A stretch of 64,000 bases of DNA from Bacteroidaceae bacterium. Its GTDB lineage: Bacteria; Bacteroidota; Bacteroidia; Bacteroidales; Bacteroidaceae. Each line of letters opens with the position of its first letter. Positions within the stretch are counted from its first letter, which is position 1. Of the stretch, positions 3,176-24,934 are shown piece by piece. Location: assembly GCA_017470425.1 (NCBI GenBank), contig JAFUYT010000026.1, positions 54,291 to 118,290 on the forward strand. The letters are read 5' to 3'. Below the pieces are notes generated by a model. The model had not been told where the DNA came from and did not search any database. It saw only the letters and a list, made by a program, of their open reading frames with translations. The position numbers and the translations under genes were made by a program.

Positions 3176-4432
3176 CTATCCTTGCATCGCATTGAGCGTG
3201 GATTTCTCCAGTTGCTGTCGTGCGTAGTCAAGCGTCACCCGGAATGTCTTCTCGCCCGATGATGGAAGCTCAAATTGCGGCGTCATCATGATGGCCTCGA
3301 CGATGCTCCGCAGGCCGCGTGCACCCAGCTTGTACTCCACGGCCTTATCCACCATGTACTCCAGTGCTGCCTCGTCGAACGTCAACCGGATGTCGTCCAT
3401 CAGGAACAGTTTCTCCTGCTGGCGGATGAGTGAGTTCTTGGGCTCCGTCAGGATGGCGCGCAGCGCCTTGCGGTCGAGCTGGTTCAGGTAGGTCAGCACC
3501 GGCAGACGGCCGATGATCTCCGGAATCAGTCCGAAGCTCTTCAGATCCTGTGGCACGATGTATTTCATCAGGTCGTTGCGGTCGATGCGCGCTACGTTCT
3601 GCACAGAGTTGTAGCCCACCACGTGGGTGTTCAACCGCTGTGCAATCTTGCGCTCGATGCCGTCGAAGGCGCCGCCGCAGATGAACAGGATGTTGCGCGT
3701 ATCGACGTGCACGTAGTCCTGATCCGGGTGCTTGCGGCCGCCCTTGGGCGGCACGTTCACGATGGAGCCTTCCAGCAGCTTCAGCAGACCCTGCTGCACA
3801 CCCTCGCCGCTCACGTCGCGCGTGATGCTCGGGTTGTCGGTCTTGCGTGCGATCTTGTCGATTTCATCAATGAATACGATGCCGCGCTGTGTGGCCTCCA
3901 CATCGAAGTCGGCCACCTGCAACAGGCGCGAGAGGATGCTCTCGACGTCCTCGCCCACGTAGCCTGCCTCCGTGAAGATCGTCGCATCGACGATCGTGAA
4001 CGGCACTTTCAGCAGCTTTGCGATGGTGCGTGCCATGAGCGTCTTGCCCGTGCCCGTGGGACCCACCATGATGACGTTGCTCTTCTCGATCTCCACGCCG
4101 TCGTCGCCAACGGACTGGCACAGCCGCTTGTAGTGGTTATAGACGGCCACGGAGAGATAGCGTTTCGCGTCGTCCTGACCGATCACGTACTGGTCCAGAT
4201 ACGCTTTGATGTCGGCCGGGCGCGGCAGCGTCTTCCAGTTCATCGACCGCGACCATTGCGATGAGCTCTGGCCGTTCGCCGCTCCCTCAGCCTTCCCTGC
4301 GGCCTCCGTCACAATCTGGTGGGCCTGCTCGATGCAGTCGTTGCAGATGAAACCGCTGATGCCGCTCACGAGCAGCGCCACCTCATCGTCGGAGCGCCCA
4401 CAGAAGGAACAGTAGTTCTTTTTCTTTGCCAT
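3176..4432 (-). CDS. clpX: ATP-dependent Clp protease ATP-binding subunit ClpX
   Basis: N-terminal C4 zinc finger (CSFCG..CNDC), Walker A GPTGTGKT, 418 aa, located directly downstream of clpP. Confidence 0.96.
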
Positions 4433-17543: not shown

Positions 17544-18491
17544 ATGCCACACATCGCAAAGCAACTGACAGACCTTATTGGTCGTACTCCCCTCGTGGAG
17601 CTGAATAAATATTCCCAGCTGAAGGGCCTCGCTACGCCCATCATTGCCAAGGTGGAGTTCTTCAACCCCGGCGGCAGTGTGAAGGACCGCATCGCCCTCG
17701 CCATGATCGAGGACGCTGAGCAGCGCGGACTTCTGAAGCCCGGCGCCACCATCATCGAGCCCACCAGCGGCAACACGGGCGTTGGCCTGGCGCTGGTCAG
17801 CGCCGTGAAGGGCTATAAGCTCATCCTGACGATGCCCGAGACGATGAGCGTGGAGCGCCGCAACCTCGTGAAAGCCTATGGCGCCGAGGTGCGCCTGACG
17901 TCCGGCAAGGACGGCATGAAAGGCGCCATCGCCGCCGCTGAGGCGCTGCGCGACAGCATCCCCGGTAGCATCATCCTGCAGCAGTTCGAGAACCCCGCGA
18001 ACCCCGCCAAGCACTACGCCACGACGGGCGTGGAGATCTGGGACGACACCGACGGACAGGTGGATATCTTCGTGGCGGGCGTCGGCACCGGTGGCACCGT
18101 CTCCGGCGTGGGCAAGCGCCTGAAGGAGAAGAACCCGCAGGTGAAGGTCATCGCCGTAGAGCCCAAGGCCAGCGCGGTCCTCAACGGACAGCCCAGTGGG
18201 CCGCATAAGATCCAGGGTATCGGTGCCGGTTTCATCCCCAAGACCTACAACGGCGACATCATCGACGAGGTCTTCGACGTGGAGAACGACGACGCCCTGC
18301 GCACGGGTCGCCAGCTGGCCGCCCAGGAGGGACTCCTCGTGGGTATCTCCGCCGGCGCCGCTGCCTTCGCCGCAGCAGAGGTGGCCAAGCGTCCCGAAAA
18401 CAAAGGCAAGAAGATCGTGGTCCTCTTGCCTGATACGGGTGAGCGCTATTTCTCGACGCAGCTCTATGCCTTCGAGGATTATCCGCTTTAG
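17544..18491 (+). CDS. cysK: Cysteine synthase A
   Basis: PLP-lysine region NPGGSVKDR and the GVGTGGT loop. 315 aa. Confidence 0.92.
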
Positions 18492-19264
18492 TTCTCGATG
18501 TTCCGGCGAATCCGGGTGAGGTAGGTCGTCATGGCCTCCTCATCGCGGTCGTCGATGATCTGAATGAGTTCCTTCAGCTCCGTGCGGATACGCTCCACCT
18601 TGGGCTTCGTGTGCGGGTTGAACAGTATTTCGCGCAGCAGCGTGTCGTCTTCAGAGAGCACGCCGCGCGCGATTTTCATGTGGCGCTTGAAGGTCGTACC
18701 CGGCGTGTCCTGATGCTTCATGACGGCGGAGAATACGAAGGTCGATACGAAGGGGATGGACAGCGAGTAGGACATCGTCTCGTCGTGCTCCGCGAAGGTC
18801 AGCTCCTTCACGTTCAGCCCCAGACGGGCGTAGAGGTCACGGAAGAAGATGCGACCCATGTAGTCTCCCTCGGAGATGATGATGGCGTTCTCATTGCTGA
18901 GCTGCCCCAGGTTGGCGAAGGTGGGGCCGAACATCGGGTGCGACGAGGCGTAGCGGCGTCCCGTCTGCTCGTAGTATTCCCGGAAGCCGGTCTTGACGCT
19001 GCTGATGTCGGAGAGGATGCAGTCCTTGCCGACATGCGGCAGCAGCTCATCAAACACCTGCAACGTGTATTTCAGCGATACGGCGTTGATGACGAGTTCG
19101 GGATTGAAGGCATCTACCTCGTCGAGCGAGGTGAAGCGCTGGGTGTTGTAGAGGAAGCGCATACGGCGCGGGTCGTTGTCATACACCGCCACTTCGTGGT
19201 CAAACGAAAGCAGGTCCGTGAAGAACGACCCCATCTTGCCGGCGCCGAGGATGAGGATTCGCAT
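18488..19264 (-). CDS. tyrA: Prephenate dehydrogenase
   Basis: N-terminal Rossmann motif ILGAGKMG. It is the last gene of the aromatic operon. Its stop overlaps the cysK stop. Confidence 0.8.
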
Positions 19265-19272
19265 ATCTGTAA

Positions 19273-20340
19273 TTACTTATTCATAATCTCAATCTGCTGC
19301 CGCACACTCTCTTCGTGGATGTGCTCGTAGATGTCGCGGACGAAGTCGGGGCTCATGCCGCAGAGAGCGCCTTGTGCGCCGCGCTTGTCCAGGATCTCGC
19401 TGTAGCGCGTGGTCTGCACGACCGTCATGTTGTGCAGCTTCTTGTACTCTGCAATCTCGCGGCTGACGCGCATACGCTTCGTGAGCAGGTCCATGAGGGC
19501 GTTGTCGAGCTCGTCGATCTGCTTGCGCAGCTGGCTGATGCTCTCGGTGACCTCCATCTCGTCGCGGATGACGAGGCGGTCTAGGATGAAGTCCAGCACC
19601 TCCGGCAGCACCTGTTGCTTGGCGTCGCTCCACGCGCAGTCGGGGTTGCAGTGGCTCTCGATCATCAGGCCGTCCATGCCCAGGTCCATCGCCTGCTGTG
19701 ACAGCGGTGCCACCAGGTCGCGGCGGCCGCCCATGTGGCTGGGGTCGGTGATGATGGGTAGGGTGGGGAAGCGGCGCTTCAGCTCGATGGGCAGGTGCCA
19801 CATCGGCGGGTTGCGGTAGAGCTTGCTGTCGGCGCTGGAGAAGCCGCGGTGGATGGCGCCGAGGCGCTGGATTCCGGCGTTGTTGATGCGCAGGAGGGCA
19901 CCCGTCCACAGTTCGATGTCGGGGTTCACGGGGTTCTTCACCAGCACGGGAACATCCACGCCGCGCAGCGCATCGGCGATGGCCTGCACCGAGAACGGGT
20001 TGGCCGTCGTGCGGGCACCCACCCACAGGATGTCAATGCCCGCCGCGAGGGCGGCCTCCACGTGTTCGGGCGTGGCCACCTCGGTGGCCAGCAGCATACC
20101 TGTCTCTTCCTTCACGCGCTGCATCCAGGGCAGCGCCTCCACGCCTTTACCCTCGAAGCCGCCTGGCTTCGTGCGGGGCTTCCATACGCCGGCGCGGAAG
20201 ATGCGGATGCCGTTGTTGGCCAGTTGGCGCGCGGTGTCCATCACTTGTTCCTCGGTCTCTGCCGAGCACGGCCCTGCAATCACCAGCGGCCGCTTCTGTT
20301 CGATGCCCGGGAGGGCAAGGGGGGAAAGTTCTAAGTCCAT
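19273..20340 (-). CDS. Bifunctional 3-deoxy-7-phosphoheptulonate (DAHP) synthase / chorismate mutase type II
   Basis: Class I-beta DAHPS/KDO8PS-like barrel (VIAGPCSAE, RAGVWKPRT, ITDPSH) plus a C-terminal chorismate-mutase helix region (LRKQIDELDNALMDLLTKRMRVSREIAEYK). Confidence 0.85.
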   Translation of the reverse strand: MDLELSPLALPGIEQKRPLVIAGPCSAETEEQVMDTARQLANNGIRIFRAGVWKPRTKPGGFEGKGVEALPWMQRVKEETGMLLATEVATPEHVEAALAAGIDILWVGARTTANPFSVQAIADALRGVDVPVLVKNPVNPDIELWTGALLRINNAGIQRLGAIHRGFSSADSKLYRNPPMWHLPIELKRRFPTLPIITDPSHMGGRRDLVAPLSQQAMDLGMDGLMIESHCNPDCAWSDAKQQVLPEVLDFILDRLVIRDEMEVTESISQLRKQIDELDNALMDLLTKRMRVSREIAEYKKLHNMTVVQTTRYSEILDKRGAQGALCGMSPDFVRDIYEHIHEESVRQQIEIMNK

Positions 20341-20360: not shown

Positions 20361-20467
20361 TAATTCTTGGTTCTTCTAGGTTCTCCTAGGAACTCCAAGG
20401 TTTTCCTAGGCATTCCTATGTTTTCCTAGGCATTCATAGGTTTTCCTAGGCTGCCTTAGATCCTAGG
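20361..20467. repeat. 10-bp periodic tandem repeat (TTYTCCTAGG-like, about 10 units, five exact CCTAGG sites)
   Basis: Consecutive 10-nt blocks end in AGG or a near variant. CCTAGG occurs at 20385, 20405, 20425, 20445 and 20462. The repeat spans the aminotransferase stop and the spacer before the DAHPS gene. Confidence 0.8.
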
Positions 20468-21759
20468 CTTTGTATCCTTTTGAGCGCCTCGCGCATCCGC
20501 TCCTCCTTGGCGCAGAGCGAGATACGGATGTAGCGGGCGCCGTTGCTGCCGAAGATGAAGCCGGGGGTGATGAAGACGCGTGCCCCGTGGAGCACGCGCT
20601 CCGTAAGCACCTCGACATCGGCGTAGGCATCGGGGATGCGGCCCCACAGGAACATTCCCGTCTGTGCCGGGTCGAAGGTACAGCCCAGCGCTGTCATGAT
20701 TTCCTCGGCGATGTGGCGCCGGCGTCCGTAGGTGACCTCGTTCATCTCGTGGTGCCACTCCTCGCTGTTCGCCGTCAGCGCCTCGGCGGCAGCCAGCTGA
20801 ATGGCGCGGAACGTGCCGTTCTCGACGTTCGTCTTCACCTTCAGGATCCATTGCACAAACTGCGCGTTGGTGCAGAGCATCGCCACGCGCCAGCCTGGCA
20901 TATTGTGCGACTTCGAGAGCGAGTTGAACTCGATACAGCAGTCCTTGGCGCCAGGCACCTGGAGAATGGAGAGCAGGCTCTGATCACTCTGATTATTCAG
21001 ATTACTCTGATTACTCTGATTACTCTGATTACTCTGATTACTCTGATTACTCAGATTATTCAGATTACTCAGATCACTCTGATGATTCTGAGGCCTGATA
21101 AAGCTATACGGATTATCATTCACCACCACGATGGCGTGGCGCTGCGCGAAGGCCACGAGCTGCTCGTAGGTCTCGCGGCGGGCGGGGGCGCCGGTCGGCA
21201 TGTGGGGATAGTTGGACCACAGCAGGCGGATGCGCTTACCCTCGGCGGCGCTCTGCTGCACGAGGGCCTCCAGCTGCTTGAAGTCGGGCTGCCAGCCGCC
21301 CTCGGCTGTGAGGTCGTAGTTGATGACCTCGGCTCCTAACAGGCGCGACAGCGAGGTGTAGGTGGGGTAGCCGGGGTTCGGCACCAGCACGCGGTCGCCG
21401 GGGTTCACGAAGGCCAGGGTGGCGTGCAGGATGCCCTCCTTGGAGCCGATGAGCGGCTGCACCTCTGTGGCTGGATCCAGTTCCACACCGTACCAGCGGC
21501 GGTAGAACGTGGCCATCGCCTGACGCAGCTCCGGCGTGCCCACCGTGGGTTGGTAGCCGTGGCCGTCGGCCTTGCGCGCCTCGCGGCACAGCACCTCGAT
21601 GGTATGCTCCGAGGGCGGCATATCGGGGCTGCCGATAGCCAGCGAGATGATGTCCTTGCCCTCGGCGTTCAGCTGTGCCACCTCCTTCAGCTTGCGGCTG
21701 AAGTAGTATTCCTGTACGAGCGAGAGGCGCTCGGCGGGTTCAAATGCTTTCTTTTCCAT
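20446..21759 (-). CDS. Class I/II PLP-dependent aminotransferase (aromatic/prephenate aminotransferase candidate)
   Basis: PLP-lysine motif SLSKSHNMPGWR and an aromatic-operon context. It carries a 36-aa in-frame microsatellite insertion. Confidence 0.85.
   Translation of the reverse strand: MEKKAFEPAERLSLVQEYYFSRKLKEVAQLNAEGKDIISLAIGSPDMPPSEHTIEVLCREARKADGHGYQPTVGTPELRQAMATFYRRWYGVELDPATEVQPLIGSKEGILHATLAFVNPGDRVLVPNPGYPTYTSLSRLLGAEVINYDLTAEGGWQPDFKQLEALVQQSAAEGKRIRLLWSNYPHMPTGAPARRETYEQLVAFAQRHAIVVVNDNPYSFIRPQNHQSDLSNLNNLSNQSNQSNQSNQSNQSNLNNQSDQSLLSILQVPGAKDCCIEFNSLSKSHNMPGWRVAMLCTNAQFVQWILKVKTNVENGTFRAIQLAAAEALTANSEEWHHEMNEVTYGRRRHIAEEIMTALGCTFDPAQTGMFLWGRIPDAYADVEVLTERVLHGARVFITPGFIFGSNGARYIRISLCAKEERMREALKRIQSLGSKAA
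20982..21089. repeat. 9-bp microsatellite, 12 units, in frame within the aminotransferase
   Basis: GATTACTCT-type units start every 9 bp from 20982 to 21081. They are translated on the minus strand as SNQ/SNL-type triplets (..SNLNNLSNQSNQSNQSNQSNQSNLNNQSDQS..). Confidence 0.9.
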
Positions 21760-22582
21760 GTTGGTATTCTCCTAAGATTTTAAGTCCGCTGGTCAGGGGA
21801 CGGATCGCGTCGATGCCCTGGCTGTAGCGGGTGTAGTCGCTGAATTGGATATCCACGTAGAACATATATTCCCACTCGCGGCCGATGATGGGCAGCGACT
21901 GGATCTTCGTCAGGTTCAGCTTGTAGAACGACAGGATGGAGAGCACCTGCGAGAGCGAGCCCTCTTCGTGGGGCAGTGAGAACACGATGCTCGCCTTGTC
22001 TGCCGCCAGGATGTTCCGGAGCAGGTTGGCGCGGGAGGGCGATGAGAACACGAGGAAGCGCGTGAAGTTGTGTTTGTTTGTCTCGATGCCCTGTTCCAGC
22101 ACCTTCAGGCCGTAGAGCTCTGCCACGTGGGCCGAGCCGATGGCGGCATGTCCGTGGAGCTGGCCGTCGGCGATGGTGCGCGCAGCACCGGCCGTGTCGC
22201 TGGCCTCCACCACCTTCAGCGTCTCGTGGCGCTCCAGGAACTCGCGGCACTGCATGAGTGCCACGGGGTGGGAGTGCACTTCCGTCAGATCCGCCCAGTC
22301 GTCGGAGGGCAGGCACATGAACGAATGTTTGATGCGTAGCTTATGCTCGCCCACGATGGCGGCGCCCGAGTCGCGCAGCAGCTCATAGTTGTGGAGCAGT
22401 GAGCCCGCAATTGTGTTCTCGATGGCCACCATGCCGATGACCGTCGGGTCCTGGCGCAGCGTCGCGAACACCTGCTCGAAAGTGCTGCAGCAGATCAGCT
22501 CGATCTCCTCGTCGCCGAAGAACTGGTGGGCTGCGATGTCGTGGAAGCTGCCCTCAATACCTTGTATGGCTATACGTTTCAT
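21740..22582 (-). CDS. pheA: Prephenate dehydratase
   Basis: PDT domain (IAIQGIEGSF, TRF motif in NFTRFLV) plus a C-terminal ACT-like region. The track start at 22591 is a TTG. The ATG (complement 22580-22582, MKRIAIQG) is preferred. Confidence 0.88.
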   Translation of the reverse strand: MKRIAIQGIEGSFHDIAAHQFFGDEEIELICCSTFEQVFATLRQDPTVIGMVAIENTIAGSLLHNYELLRDSGAAIVGEHKLRIKHSFMCLPSDDWADLTEVHSHPVALMQCREFLERHETLKVVEASDTAGAARTIADGQLHGHAAIGSAHVAELYGLKVLEQGIETNKHNFTRFLVFSSPSRANLLRNILAADKASIVFSLPHEEGSLSQVLSILSFYKLNLTKIQSLPIIGREWEYMFYVDIQFSDYTRYSQGIDAIRPLTSGLKILGEYQHGKESI

Positions 22583-22590
22583 ATTTGTCA

Positions 22591-22625
22591 ATTAAAAACA
22601 AATCCCGCCTCTTTGTGAAGCGGGA
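22591..22625 (-). terminator. Attenuator terminator immediately upstream of pheA
   Basis: Minus-strand RNA UCCCGCUU-CACAAAG-AGGCGGGA forms an 8-bp stem including one G-U pair. It is followed by UUUGUUUUU and sits 9 nt before the pheA ATG. Confidence 0.7.
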
Positions 22626-22680
22626 CCCTATCTTTCAATTACCAATTTTCAATGTCAGTTTTGAATTTGTGCGTGGCCGA

Positions 22681-22689
22681 CCGCTTCAC
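22681..22689 (-). promoter_or_regulatory. Antiterminator segment GUGAAGCGG, complementary to the terminator 5' arm
   Basis: Plus-strand CCGCTTCAC (22681-22689) is a perfect inverted repeat of GTGAAGCGG (22615-22623). It overlaps the leader-peptide stop codon. Confidence 0.6.
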
Positions 22690-22742
22690 CTTGTCTGGGT
22701 AAAGTAAAAATAAAACCAGTAATAGGAGTTGCGGTGTTGCAT
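22686..22742 (-). CDS. Aromatic-rich leader peptide MQHRNSYYWFYFYFTQTR (18 codons)
   Basis: Verified codon by codon on the minus strand. ATG is the complement of 22740-22742 and TGA the complement of 22686-22688. It forms the 3' end of the artefactual 122-aa ORF 22686..23054. Confidence 0.65.
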   Translation of the reverse strand: MQHRNSYYWFYFYFTQTR

Positions 22743-22770
22743 GTTTTCTGTTTTTGTTTGTTTTGCGCTG

Positions 22771-22778
22771 CAAAGTAA
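22771..22778 (-). promoter_or_regulatory. Imperfect -7-like box TTACTTTG (minus strand) upstream of the leader peptide
   Basis: Plus-strand CAAAGTAA, about 29 nt upstream of the leader ATG. One mismatch to TAnnTTTG. Confidence 0.35.
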
Positions 22779-22837
22779 CACATTTTTTACGAAACCGCCA
22801 ACTATTTCACGCTCTTTTTGCATTTCCCCTTGCATTT

Positions 22838-23047
22838 TTCTTCCGTTTCTTCCGTTCCCCCTCTCCCCTTTCCCTCCTTCCTTCCTCCCTCCCTTCTTCT
22901 CCCTTCTCCCTTCCCCTTTCCCTCCTTCCTTCCTTCCTCCCTTCTTCTCCTTCTCCTCCGTCCCCTTCTTTCTCCCGCCCCCTCCTGCCTTCCCCCTGCC
23001 CCCCGCCCCGTTTCCGGCGGTTCGTCCGTCGGCTCCTCCCTCCCTCG
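22838..23047 (+). repeat. Polypyrimidine (C/T) tract of about 200 bp on the + strand
   Basis: 22855-22959 is pure C/T (105 nt) and the flanks have only scattered G. It has an internal duplication of roughly 50 bp (CCCCTTTCCCTCCTTCCTTCC...CTTCTTCTCC). Confidence 0.9.
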
Positions 23048-23180
23048 CGTACATTATTTATATAAAGGCACCCCAGAATAAGTGTACAAAATGTCCTCCA
23101 AAGATTAACAAATGTTAAAATCGGGGGGGGGTAATGAAGCCGCCCTGTTAAAAAGTCTTGGCGGTTTGCCTGAAAGTCCG

Positions 23181-23188
23181 TACCTTTG
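23181..23188 (+). promoter_or_regulatory. -7 promoter box TACCTTTG upstream of the surface-structure locus
   Basis: Exact TAnnTTTG match inside the shared 26-nt block. It lies 172 nt upstream of the ATG at 23360. Confidence 0.55.
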
Positions 23189-23359
23189 CAGCGAACAACA
23201 AATAAGGACTAAGAAGACCCTTTCAACTTGACCGCGTGAGCCAGAGCAACGAGGAGGCCAAATGCCTTCCGGTAGTGAGCTACGGACTCCGCGGAAATCG
23301 CGAAACGGGCAACACGATACAAACTAACACCCGAGCCGCACGAAGGCAGAAAGTAGCAG

Positions 23360-24934
23360 ATGAAGAATAGTAGAGGCATACGACTTTTGTGGACGCTGAT
23401 TCTCATGGTGTGGGGATTGCCGGGCTGCTCCTTTGCTCTCGTCAAGGTGGCTCCGCCGCCGGTCGTTGGTGTGTTATTGAGCGGCGATTTGCCGCTGGAC
23501 ACGCTTGGCTTCTACGACCGTTATCCCTTCATCCGTTTTGTGGGCAGTCAGGAGGATGCCAGCCTCGTGCAGCTGAGCGACGACGAGATCCTCGACCAGG
23601 CCGGAAAGGTAGTGTTCCGCGTGAACCGCTACGATGTCTTTACCAACGATTCCCTTTTACATGAACTGGAGACACTCATCTTGCCCCGGATCAACCGGGA
23701 CAGCCTGAGGCTGTGCCGTATCGTGGTGCGTGGTGCCGCGTCGCCCGAGGGTCCTGTGCCCAACAACCGTATGCTCGGACGTCGTCGTGTGGCTACGCTC
23801 ACTAATTTTTTACGCGCGCGTATGAGCGTGCCCGTGGACGAGCGCAACTTTACTACCGAGGCCGTCACCGAGGATTACCGCCTGTTGCTGACCATGATGC
23901 GGCGCGCCGCAGATCCCGACCTCGATGCCGTGCAGCGGCTCTGCAACCGCCACCTGCCCCGCTATGAATACACCCTTCTGAAGCGAGAACTGCAGCGCCT
24001 GCAGGGTGGCCGCCTCTGGCGCCGCCTCCTCAAGGACTACTTCCCCGAGCTGCGTGCAGCGAGGGTGGTGCTGTTCTTCGAAGAAGCTAAGCCCCAGAAG
24101 GAAACACCAGAAGCTATAGAAACGCCAGAAGCTCCAATGATTATAGAAGCTGTGGAAGTTCCGGAAACGCCAGAGCTCCCCCTTGCCCCCCGCGTCCTCA
24201 GCATCCCGCGCCGCGAGCTGCTCTCGGTGAAGACCAACCTGCTGTTGGATTTCGCCTATGTGCCGGGCTACGACCGGTGGTGTCCCATCCCCAACGTGGC
24301 CATCGAGTACTACCCGCTGCGGGGGCACTTCACGTATGGCGCCTCGCTGGACTTCCCCTGGTGGCAGCACTACAGCGACCATAAGTTCTTCCAGATCCGC
24401 AACTACCAGCTGGAGGCCCGCTATTATCTGCGTTCCGGCAGCATCGAGCGTCGCACGCCCGGCGAGGGCGCCGCCTTCCGCGGACTCTACTTCTCTGCCT
24501 ACGCACATGCCGCCCTCTTCGGTATCTGCTTCGATGCAGACCGTGGCTGGGAGGGTGAGGCGCTGGGCGGCGGCCTCGGCGTAGGCTATGTGCTGCCCCT
24601 CGGCCGCAAGGGCCACTGGCGCATGGAGTTCTCCGCGCAGGTCGGCGTCTTCTTCAGCGGCTACGACCCCTATCAGTACGAGAACCCCGTGAACCCCTAC
24701 TACCGCGACGGCCTCTATTACTACAAGTGGACGGGCCGCAAGGCTGACTTCCGCGAGCGTCAGTACCGCTTCACGTGGTTCGGTCCCACCCGCGCGGGCA
24801 TCACCATCTCCTATGACATCCTCTACCGGCGCTGGCGCAAGAAAAGCGAACGGCAGCTCCCCGCCAGCTCCATCGGCACCGAGGGATGGCGCGGCGCCAG
24901 CTTCCGAGACCACGAGCTCGTGGTGGAGGAGTGA
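23360..24934 (+). CDS. Outer-membrane protein of fimbrial loci (OmpA-like ASPEG region plus a DUF3575-like C-terminal beta-barrel region)
   Basis: Signal/lipobox-like N-terminus (LMVWGLPGCS), motif RGAASPEGPVPNNRMLGRRR, a Pro/Glu-rich linker, and an aromatic-rich C-terminal half (LLLDFAYVPG.., YYLRSG, FSAQVGVFFSGY). Family recognition is from memory and is not a search result. Confidence 0.55.
   Translation: MKNSRGIRLLWTLILMVWGLPGCSFALVKVAPPPVVGVLLSGDLPLDTLGFYDRYPFIRFVGSQEDASLVQLSDDEILDQAGKVVFRVNRYDVFTNDSLLHELETLILPRINRDSLRLCRIVVRGAASPEGPVPNNRMLGRRRVATLTNFLRARMSVPVDERNFTTEAVTEDYRLLLTMMRRAADPDLDAVQRLCNRHLPRYEYTLLKRELQRLQGGRLWRRLLKDYFPELRAARVVLFFEEAKPQKETPEAIETPEAPMIIEAVEVPETPELPLAPRVLSIPRRELLSVKTNLLLDFAYVPGYDRWCPIPNVAIEYYPLRGHFTYGASLDFPWWQHYSDHKFFQIRNYQLEARYYLRSGSIERRTPGEGAAFRGLYFSAYAHAALFGICFDADRGWEGEALGGGLGVGYVLPLGRKGHWRMEFSAQVGVFFSGYDPYQYENPVNPYYRDGLYYYKWTGRKADFRERQYRFTWFGPTRAGITISYDILYRRWRKKSERQLPASSIGTEGWRGASFRDHELVVEE

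Follow-up and report, generated by a model that had tools for sequence, protein, structure and literature searches.

In the pheL-pheA system of Escherichia coli, a short leader open reading frame (ORF) rich in codons for the end product precedes mutually exclusive hairpins that are read by the position of the ribosome, and the same organism has multivalent attenuators, thr (Thr and Ile codons) and ilvGMEDA (Ile, Leu and Val codons). A survey by Vitreschak and colleagues (FEMS Microbiology Letters, 2004) is reported to have described attenuators in Bacteroidetes/Chlorobi. Here we analyze a 64,000-nucleotide (nt) stretch from a Bacteroidaceae bacterium (contig JAFUYT010000026.1 of assembly GCA_017470425.1, positions 54,291 to 118,290; hereafter the window, numbered from its first letter) in which a putative attenuator with an aromatic-codon leader peptide lies on the minus strand directly ahead of pheA and the rest of an operon for aromatic amino-acid synthesis.

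Related leaders have been reported within the phylum. For Flavobacterium psychrophilum, Table S7 and Appendix D9 of Guérin et al. 2021 (PMC9723704) give a pheA-aspC3 leader with a mapped start, a 27-amino-acid (aa) ORF rich in Phe and Tyr, and condition-dependent read-through, and the entries of that article for the pheA operon have it induced in minimal medium (PMC9723704). For Bacteroides thetaiotaomicron, Table 7 of Song et al. 2005 (PMC1173090), drawing on Merino's database, has an entry for a putative attenuator that precedes pheA > hisHb > aroA-aroQ > tyrA. The Bacteroid-trp leader (Rfam RF01692) was defined by Weinberg et al. 2010 (PMC2864571). Ryan et al. 2020 describe B. thetaiotaomicron small ORFs "reminiscent of leader peptides" and do not name a pheA leader among them, and neither a YFYF peptide nor a pheA entry appears in the supplementary data to the B. 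thetaiotaomicron transcriptome study. Bacteroidetes go unmentioned in Naville & Gautheret 2010 and Seliverstov 2005, and full-text searches of the literature yielded no specific description of this pheA leader in Bacteroides or Prevotella. An earlier note on this DNA, written from its letters alone, had called the leader hidden; as a statement of novelty to the phylum this does not stand, since predictions of similar leaders exist for B. thetaiotaomicron and F. psychrophilum.

Results

A leader ORF with eight aromatic codons lies ahead of competing RNA strands

We read the element as a ribosome-mediated (leader-peptide) transcription attenuator of the operon encoding pheA, an aminotransferase, a 3-deoxy-D-arabino-heptulosonate-7-phosphate (DAHP) synthase/chorismate mutase and tyrA, and on the combined sequence and modeling evidence put the probability of this reading at about 0.87. 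The observations behind it are the sequence elements, their conservation and covariation, their geometry, and their folding under ribosome masks. The 18-codon ORF that the earlier note had placed at 22742-22686 is there on the minus strand (Table 1), with eight consecutive aromatic codons in the order Y Y W F Y F Y F (Tyr four times, Phe three times, Trp once). Across all six frames, the window has no other run of five or more aromatic codons, and in 200 first-order Markov simulations of the window the longest run was 6 (mean maximum 3.75) and none reached 8, so that chance does not explain the run. Searches of the whole window for leader ORFs with runs of other amino acids (His, Trp, Leu, Ile/Val, Thr and others) returned chance matches within coding regions only.

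The leader UGA (22688-22686) sits within GUGAAGCGG (22689-22681), the core of what we call region 2, and this core, which begins 11 nt past the last aromatic codon, is perfectly reverse-complementary to CCGCUUCAC (22623-22615), part of the 5' arm of the downstream hairpin, region 3. Both the placement of the stop within GG-UGA-AGCGG and the complementarity were thus correctly described before. The hairpin (22628-22600) was picked up independently by a terminator scan with 12 pairs, 6 of them G-C. Its core is a 9-base-pair (bp) stem, UCCCGCUUC/GAGGCGGGA, with one G.U pair, and it extends to 12 pairs, so that the stem is 9-12 bp rather than the 8 bp first proposed; its predicted energy is -18.1 kcal/mol, and it is followed by UUUGUUUUU, which ends 11 nt, not 9 nt, before the pheA ATG (22582). 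The competing duplex of region 2 with region 3 is predicted at -22.0 kcal/mol. To these strands we add one absent from the earlier description: region 1, at the end of the aromatic run, is predicted to form a weak 7-bp hairpin with region 2 (22704-22698 with 22690-22684), hereafter the 1:2 hairpin.

Table 1. Positions in the window of the leader elements, the operon and adjoining features (regions 1 to 4 are numbered in the direction of transcription)
Feature	Position	Strand	Description
-7 box, promoter-like	22771-22778	minus	TTACTTTG; motif match only, one mismatch to Bacteroidetes TAnnTTTG
Putative 5' untranslated region of leader ORF	22743-22765	minus	A-rich, CAAAACAAACAAAAACAGAAAAC; about 23 nt; no Shine-Dalgarno sequence
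Leader ORF	22686-22742	minus	ATG 22742-22740, TGA 22688-22686; 18 codons, MQHRNSYYWFYFYFTQTR, then UGA
Aromatic run, putatively regulatory	22701-22724	minus	codons 7-14: UAU UAC UGG UUU UAU UUU UAC UUU
Region 1	22698-22704	minus	CUUUACC (end of last Tyr-Phe codons plus ACC); can pair with GGUGAAG 22690-22684
Region 2, candidate antiterminator 5' strand	22674-22690	minus	GGUGAAGCGGUCGGCCA; core GUGAAGCGG
Spacer between regions 2 and 3	22629-22673	minus	variable; UUGAA repeats; no conserved structure
Region 3, terminator 5' arm	22615-22628	minus	GGGUCCCGCUUCAC; shared partner of regions 2 and 4
Region 4, terminator 3' arm	22600-22611	minus	GAGGCGGGAUUU
U-run	22594-22602	minus	UUUGUUUUU
pheA, prephenate dehydratase	21740-22582	minus	first structural gene; identical to a 280-aa database protein
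Class I/II aminotransferase	20446-21759	minus	
DAHP synthase/chorismate mutase fusion	19273-20340	minus	
tyrA, prephenate dehydrogenase	18488-19264	minus	
Spurious 122-aa ORF	22686-23054	minus	in frame with leader; called as gene in public metagenome assemblies
Divergent neighbor	23360-24934	plus	524-aa protein with DUF3575 domain

Upstream of the leader, the promoter-like box of the window aligns with the boxes of its relatives in the same context (…GTTACTTTGCAGCGC; …TTTGCAGCGC), and among the related loci described below an exact TAnnTTTG is found in 72 of 76, its median distance upstream of the leader ATG being 28 nt. With the start mapped for F. psychrophilum pheA as a guide, transcription most likely begins near 22765, a few bases past the box, and the leader would then be the first ORF of the transcript. 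A sigma-70 promoter scan of the window returned zero sites, as expected for Bacteroidetes. Translation starts in this phylum usually have A-rich leaders of the kind found here.

The leader is overlain by a 122-aa ORF that we rejected as a true gene, in agreement with the earlier judgment that it is an artefact: it has no Pfam match, consists mostly of low-complexity sequence of ~92% purine, and starts upstream of the promoter box. Most of it is made up of a purine tract at 22836-23035 (minus strand; 200 nt, 92% purine, with GGAAGG-type repeats) that lies just upstream of the leader promoter and includes 105 uninterrupted purines at 22855-22959.

Aromatic codons and the strand downstream of them are conserved across Bacteroidaceae

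We compared the window with 80 pheA loci of other Bacteroidaceae species, collected in one scan of species-representative genomes at a PheA identity of 68-89% and drawn from Prevotella, Paraprevotella, Phocaeicola, Bacteroides and many rumen and gut metagenome-assembled genomes (MAGs). A leader ORF rich in Phe and Tyr is found upstream of pheA in 76 of them. At 74 loci the small ORF, which has at least 6 aromatic codons in a row and 6-14 aromatic residues, lies at most 260 nt upstream of pheA. Of the 76 loci with a leader, 73 additionally have the region 2/region 3 duplex and a hairpin with a U-run, with predicted energies of -10.9 to -25.7 kcal/mol for the duplex and -12.7 to -25.2 kcal/mol for the terminator. 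Alignment of the pheA upstream regions of these 73 other species, which the earlier note had proposed as a check, found conservation of the aromatic run together with compensatory stem changes. At all 73 and in the window the order is the same, running from …UAC UUU through region 2, a variable spacer of ~45 nt, region 3, a loop and region 4 to the U-run. Region 2 reads GUGAAGCGG[G] or GAGAGCGGG and starts at a median of 9 nt past the last aromatic codon (73 loci), while the consensus of region 3 is CCCGCUUCAC and that of region 4 is GUGAA[A]GCGGG.

The leaders fall into a window type (for example MQYLNSYYWFYFYFAQKG), a Prevotella type (MLNAYFYGYYFYFASNCEAGSCV) and a Bacteroides/Phocaeicola/Paraprevotella type (MKALYNTYFFFFYYFYFSNKVKREFVCVR). 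Together the 73 leaders contain 344 Phe, 341 Tyr and 7 Trp. Within the run, Phe and Tyr interchange, as do synonymous codons (TTT 245, TTC 60, TAC 218, TAT 96). Of the mixed Phe/Tyr/Trp sensing proposed earlier, the Phe and Tyr parts are borne out by this near-equal usage and the Trp part hardly so, Trp being present in only 7 of the 73 peptides; judged by codon content, sensing is essentially of Phe and Tyr. The operon products are both Phe and Tyr, and the equal Phe/Tyr content of the leaders therefore matches the operon.

Outside the run the peptides vary in length (17-34 aa) and at both termini. The same GUGAAGCGG is read as the stop-containing GG UGA AGC in the window type, as Val-Lys-Arg in the Bacteroides type, and in another frame as Cys-Glu-Ala in the Prevotella type. 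Relative to the start of region 2, the stop codon is level or upstream at 16 of the 73 loci, 4-24 nt downstream at 34, and more than 24 nt (at most 47 nt) downstream at 23. With one strand in different frames and a variable stop position, conservation downstream of the run is at the level of RNA rather than peptide. These alignments indicate that selection is on aromatic codons at this place and on the RNA strand just downstream of them, not on the protein sequence.

The same data bear on the idea that the small ORF encodes a functional hydrophobic micro-protein, with the hairpin as its terminator and pheA under a promoter of its own. The retention of the ORF at 76 of 80 loci ahead of a strong terminator would fit such a gene, but conservation is confined to the aromatic run, while termini, length and the frame over region 2 all vary. 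In several loci, that of the window among them, the U-run starts just 8-16 nt before the pheA ATG, leaving no room for a promoter, and a plain terminator needs no covarying competitor strand upstream. We consider a micro-protein gene scarcely credible.

Both competing helices covary

Covariation was counted on an alignment of 74 sequences (A2), with 500 shuffles and slid registers as controls. The antiterminator core (region 2 with region 3) is paired in 94.7% of cells, as against 39-58% in slid registers, and holds 17 compensatory cells in 4 pairs, a count reached in 0 of 500 shuffles. The base of the terminator is paired in 95.9% of cells (slid registers, 32-50%) and holds 65 compensatory cells, again reached in 0 of 500 shuffles. 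At one position of region 3, regions 2, 3 and 4 change jointly, with A/U/A in 49 loci and G/C/G in 7, and such three-way covariation is the pattern expected of a strand with two alternative partners. Locus L050 has A in place of G in region 2 and, matching it, U in place of C in region 3; its pair with region 4 is kept through G.U.

Although a 1:2 hairpin of 5-10 bp is predicted at every locus, it is weak, with a mean of -7.8 kcal/mol and modest z-scores. On A2 (columns 18-24 with 32-38) it is paired in 86.5% of cells (slid registers, 37-58%) with 16 compensatory cells, a count reached in 3 of 500 shuffles, and its innermost pair alternates between A-U and C-G. We also tried a longer 10-bp register (columns 13-22 with 29-38), which is paired in 81.8% of cells, and rejected it as a by-product of the UACUUU repeat, as 152 of 500 shuffles did equally well.

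A covariance model (R1) was built from 67 sequences with the window's clade excluded. Its single match in the window, at 22592-22715 on the minus strand, spans the full length of the model (positions 1-122) with 73.9 bits and E = 1.3e-12, and the model recovers all held-out relatives; when run on loci L004, L071 and L008, it gave no match. At gathering cut-offs no family of Rfam 15 matches the window or 10 related loci. With E relaxed to 10 over 22400-23200, the only leader match is Thr_leader (RF00506), to the terminator part only and with 16.5 bits where the cut-off is 55, and the Bacteroid-trp leader (RF01692) does not match the window region even at E up to 10.

Ribosome position selects the fold of the modeled nascent RNA

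Fold prediction, which the earlier note had suggested as a way to find mutually exclusive structures, gave a divided answer: the nascent RNA switches with ribosome position, the equilibrium fold of the full leader does not. As the terminator wins at equilibrium in all states, any switch must be kinetic and co-transcriptional, which we assume here. In the test that replaced the equilibrium one, the nascent RNA was cut just before region 4 and 28 nt around the A site were masked. For the window, the predicted probability of region 2 pairing with region 3, P(2:3), is 0.99 whichever of the eight aromatic codons the ribosome occupies, and 0.00 when it is at the stop. Across the 73 loci, stalling at an aromatic codon gives a mean P(2:3) of 0.86-0.92, with P > 0.5 in at least 98.6%, and with the ribosome at the stop the median is 0.01. 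When no ribosome was modeled, the 1:2 hairpin failed to block 2:3 pairing in 79% of loci; the models suggest that, unlike in E. coli trp, an untranslated leader probably reads through.

Several observations weigh against a leader-peptide attenuator. In equilibrium folding of the full leader, the terminator persists at P = 0.8-0.9 under every ribosome mask. Leaders of the Bacteroides/Phocaeicola type have their stop 24-47 nt beyond the point where region 2 starts and keep a P(2:3) of 0.55-0.99 with the ribosome at the stop. Switching in this type would depend on well-timed passage of the ribosome over region 2 or on a steric effect. In these models, ribosome position would pick the fold in the window and Prevotella types, and less clearly so in the Bacteroides/Phocaeicola type. 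Further points are the predicted weakness of the 1:2 hairpin and the -7 box of the window, which is one mismatch off the consensus. Finally, at loci L009, L047 and L055 (hairpins near 3940-3985; 49-91 bits to R1) the U-run is missing, although leader ORF, region 2 and hairpin are all present; these may be weakened attenuators or may terminate by other means.

The insensitivity of the equilibrium fold to ribosome masks is also what might be seen if the terminator/antiterminator switch were real but set by a factor in trans (an RNA-binding protein, a small molecule or uncharged tRNA), with the aromatic ORF incidental. Enriched motifs in and around the spacer would also fit such a factor. CGUAUGU-type words follow region 2 at 30 of 74 loci against 4 expected, irrespective of whether that stretch is translated, and UUGAA is enriched in the spacer between regions 2 and 3, at 25 of 74 loci against 7.7 expected, with two copies in the window (CAUUGAAAAUUGGUAAUUGAAAG). 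The spacer is, however, variable in length and sequence and lacks conserved structure, the UUGAA repeats are missing from most loci, and no riboswitch, T-box or protein-binding leader family of Rfam matches. Moreover, the aromatic run is kept as codons despite Phe/Tyr and synonymous changes, and its distance to region 2 is tightly constrained. Control by a trans factor instead of the ribosome appears very unlikely to us. Tandem ATTGAAGA octamers occur in the spacers of L032, L033, L040 and L076, and in L032 also after the terminator.

The lack of a U-run at three loci, together with the position of the window's terminator only 11 nt before the pheA ATG, could also be accommodated if the ORF and hairpins acted on translation, through exposure of the pheA start or re-initiation, or acted via Rho, rather than through intrinsic termination. 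Two features of the related loci speak against a masked pheA start: measured from where the U-run starts, pheA is 8 to 94 nt away, and 221 nt away in L003, and in L074 the leader stands ~1 kb upstream with a gene between. In addition, 73 of the 76 related leaders have a canonical hairpin and U-run. We hold a translational or Rho-based mode of action to be highly improbable. The ribosome-mediated attenuation layout that the earlier note had recognized is backed by the conservation, by the covariation of both helices, and by the folding under ribosome masks.

Displaced leaders, loci without one, and the operon

In L003 the leader lies 345 nt upstream of pheA, displaced by a repeat insertion; the GC-rich palindromic repeats inserted between terminator and pheA (GCCCCCCGGCCCCCTAAAGGGGG…, in three copies; L003:1493-1705, plus strand) take up ~220 nt. 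In L074, pheA stands 1,076 nt downstream of the leader and attenuator (L074:2931-3051, plus strand; 84.5 bits to R1), and an extra gene intervenes. The upstream region of L008 is cut by the contig end. In L004 and L071, pheA lies directly behind another gene and has no Phe/Tyr leader, and the gene preceding it in L071 (upstream of 3334) has a TrpA-like C-terminus. A small ORF that resembles a Trp leader, MQRTANFWWWQNSRFQ, is found in L004 ~1.5 kb upstream of pheA (L004:2439-2489, plus strand) and is without a match in Rfam at gathering cut-offs; the arrangement suggests that in L004 the Phe/Tyr genes are now under a trp-type leader.

In the window, the order of pheA, aminotransferase, DAHP synthase/chorismate mutase and tyrA is as previously described, with all four genes on the minus strand. 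PheA is 79-90% identical to proteins of uncultured Bacteroidaceae, and the nearest genomes are rumen MAGs. The neighbor with a DUF3575 domain is also found in other assemblies that carry an identical PheA.

Discussion

From the sequence we infer translation of the ORF, termination at the U-run, and a read-through response to the supply of aromatic amino acids. In the mechanism we propose, region 3 (CCCGCUUCAC) would pair either with region 4, giving an intrinsic terminator 11 nt before pheA, or with region 2 (GUGAAGCGG…), giving an antiterminator. When Phe and Tyr are plentiful, the ribosome would reach the stop and cover region 2, regions 3 and 4 would pair, and RNA polymerase would terminate. 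When charged tRNA-Phe or tRNA-Tyr is scarce, and possibly tRNA-Trp as well in the window's clade, the ribosome would stall in the aromatic run, covering region 1 and freeing region 2; the 2:3 duplex would then form before region 4 is made, and the polymerase would enter the operon. The weak 1:2 hairpin may serve as a pause site or as an anti-antiterminator.

A terminated leader RNA of ~170 nt would be expected to accumulate when Phe and Tyr are plentiful. That this RNA, or the Phe/Tyr-rich peptide, has a second role in trans is a long shot, modeled on the trp attenuator RNA rnTrpL and its peptide peTrpL of Sinorhizobium, which reportedly act in trans; the conserved GUGAAGCGGG/CCCGCUUCAC strands could by this analogy serve as a seed against other mRNAs.

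The attenuator reading would give gut and rumen Bacteroidaceae (Prevotella, Bacteroides, Phocaeicola and Paraprevotella) a defined regulatory element for aromatic amino-acid synthesis that is without an Rfam family. Gene callers place a spurious 122-aa protein over it, and the alignment and covariance model could seed an Rfam family and mend such annotations. The near 1:1 ratio of Phe to Tyr codons would make this a clean case of two-input attenuation, suited to an operon that feeds both branches. Since attenuators need translation to keep pace with transcription, conservation of the element also argues, indirectly, for transcription-translation coupling in a phylum that initiates without Shine-Dalgarno sequences.

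Several described systems can be compared with the element. It resembles E. coli pheL-pheA in having a leader directly upstream of pheA followed by an alternative antiterminator and terminator, and differs from it in several respects: there is no sequence or profile similarity, Tyr codons equal Phe codons in number where pheL has Phe alone, and the operon adds tyrA, the aminotransferase and the DAHP synthase/chorismate mutase. The leader of the window also lacks a Shine-Dalgarno sequence, and with its weak 1:2 hairpin an untranslated leader is predicted to read through. With E. coli thr and ilvGMEDA it shares a single leader peptide that mixes codons for several end products of a branched pathway, although the amino acids and lineages are others and there is no sequence relationship. 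The Bacteroid-trp leader is likewise a Bacteroidetes leader motif ahead of an aromatic amino-acid operon, but that operon is trp and the motif is Trp-specific.

Within the phylum, the F. psychrophilum leader has the same first genes (pheA and an aminotransferase), and its 27-aa ORF, MNTNNTFYSNNSFYFYWNIGRDCYMVI, mixes Phe, Tyr and Trp. When we checked its pheA 5' region, we found the same three-strand layout and a terminator with a U-run; region 2 (GGGAUUGU) starts 4 nt past the last aromatic codon, and region 3 is ACAAUCCC. Its helix sequences are different, its aromatic codons are interrupted, and its host belongs to the class Flavobacteriia. The F. psychrophilum element has transcript-level support, whereas that of the window is known from sequence. 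The B. thetaiotaomicron entry concerns the same operon in the same family, Bacteroidaceae, with a computationally predicted terminator and antiterminator, and stands in the source table as a bare list item that gives no leader peptide, codon content, covariation or distribution. The mechanism is thus a textbook one, with precedents in the same phylum; the element belongs to a widespread Bacteroidaceae family without an Rfam model.

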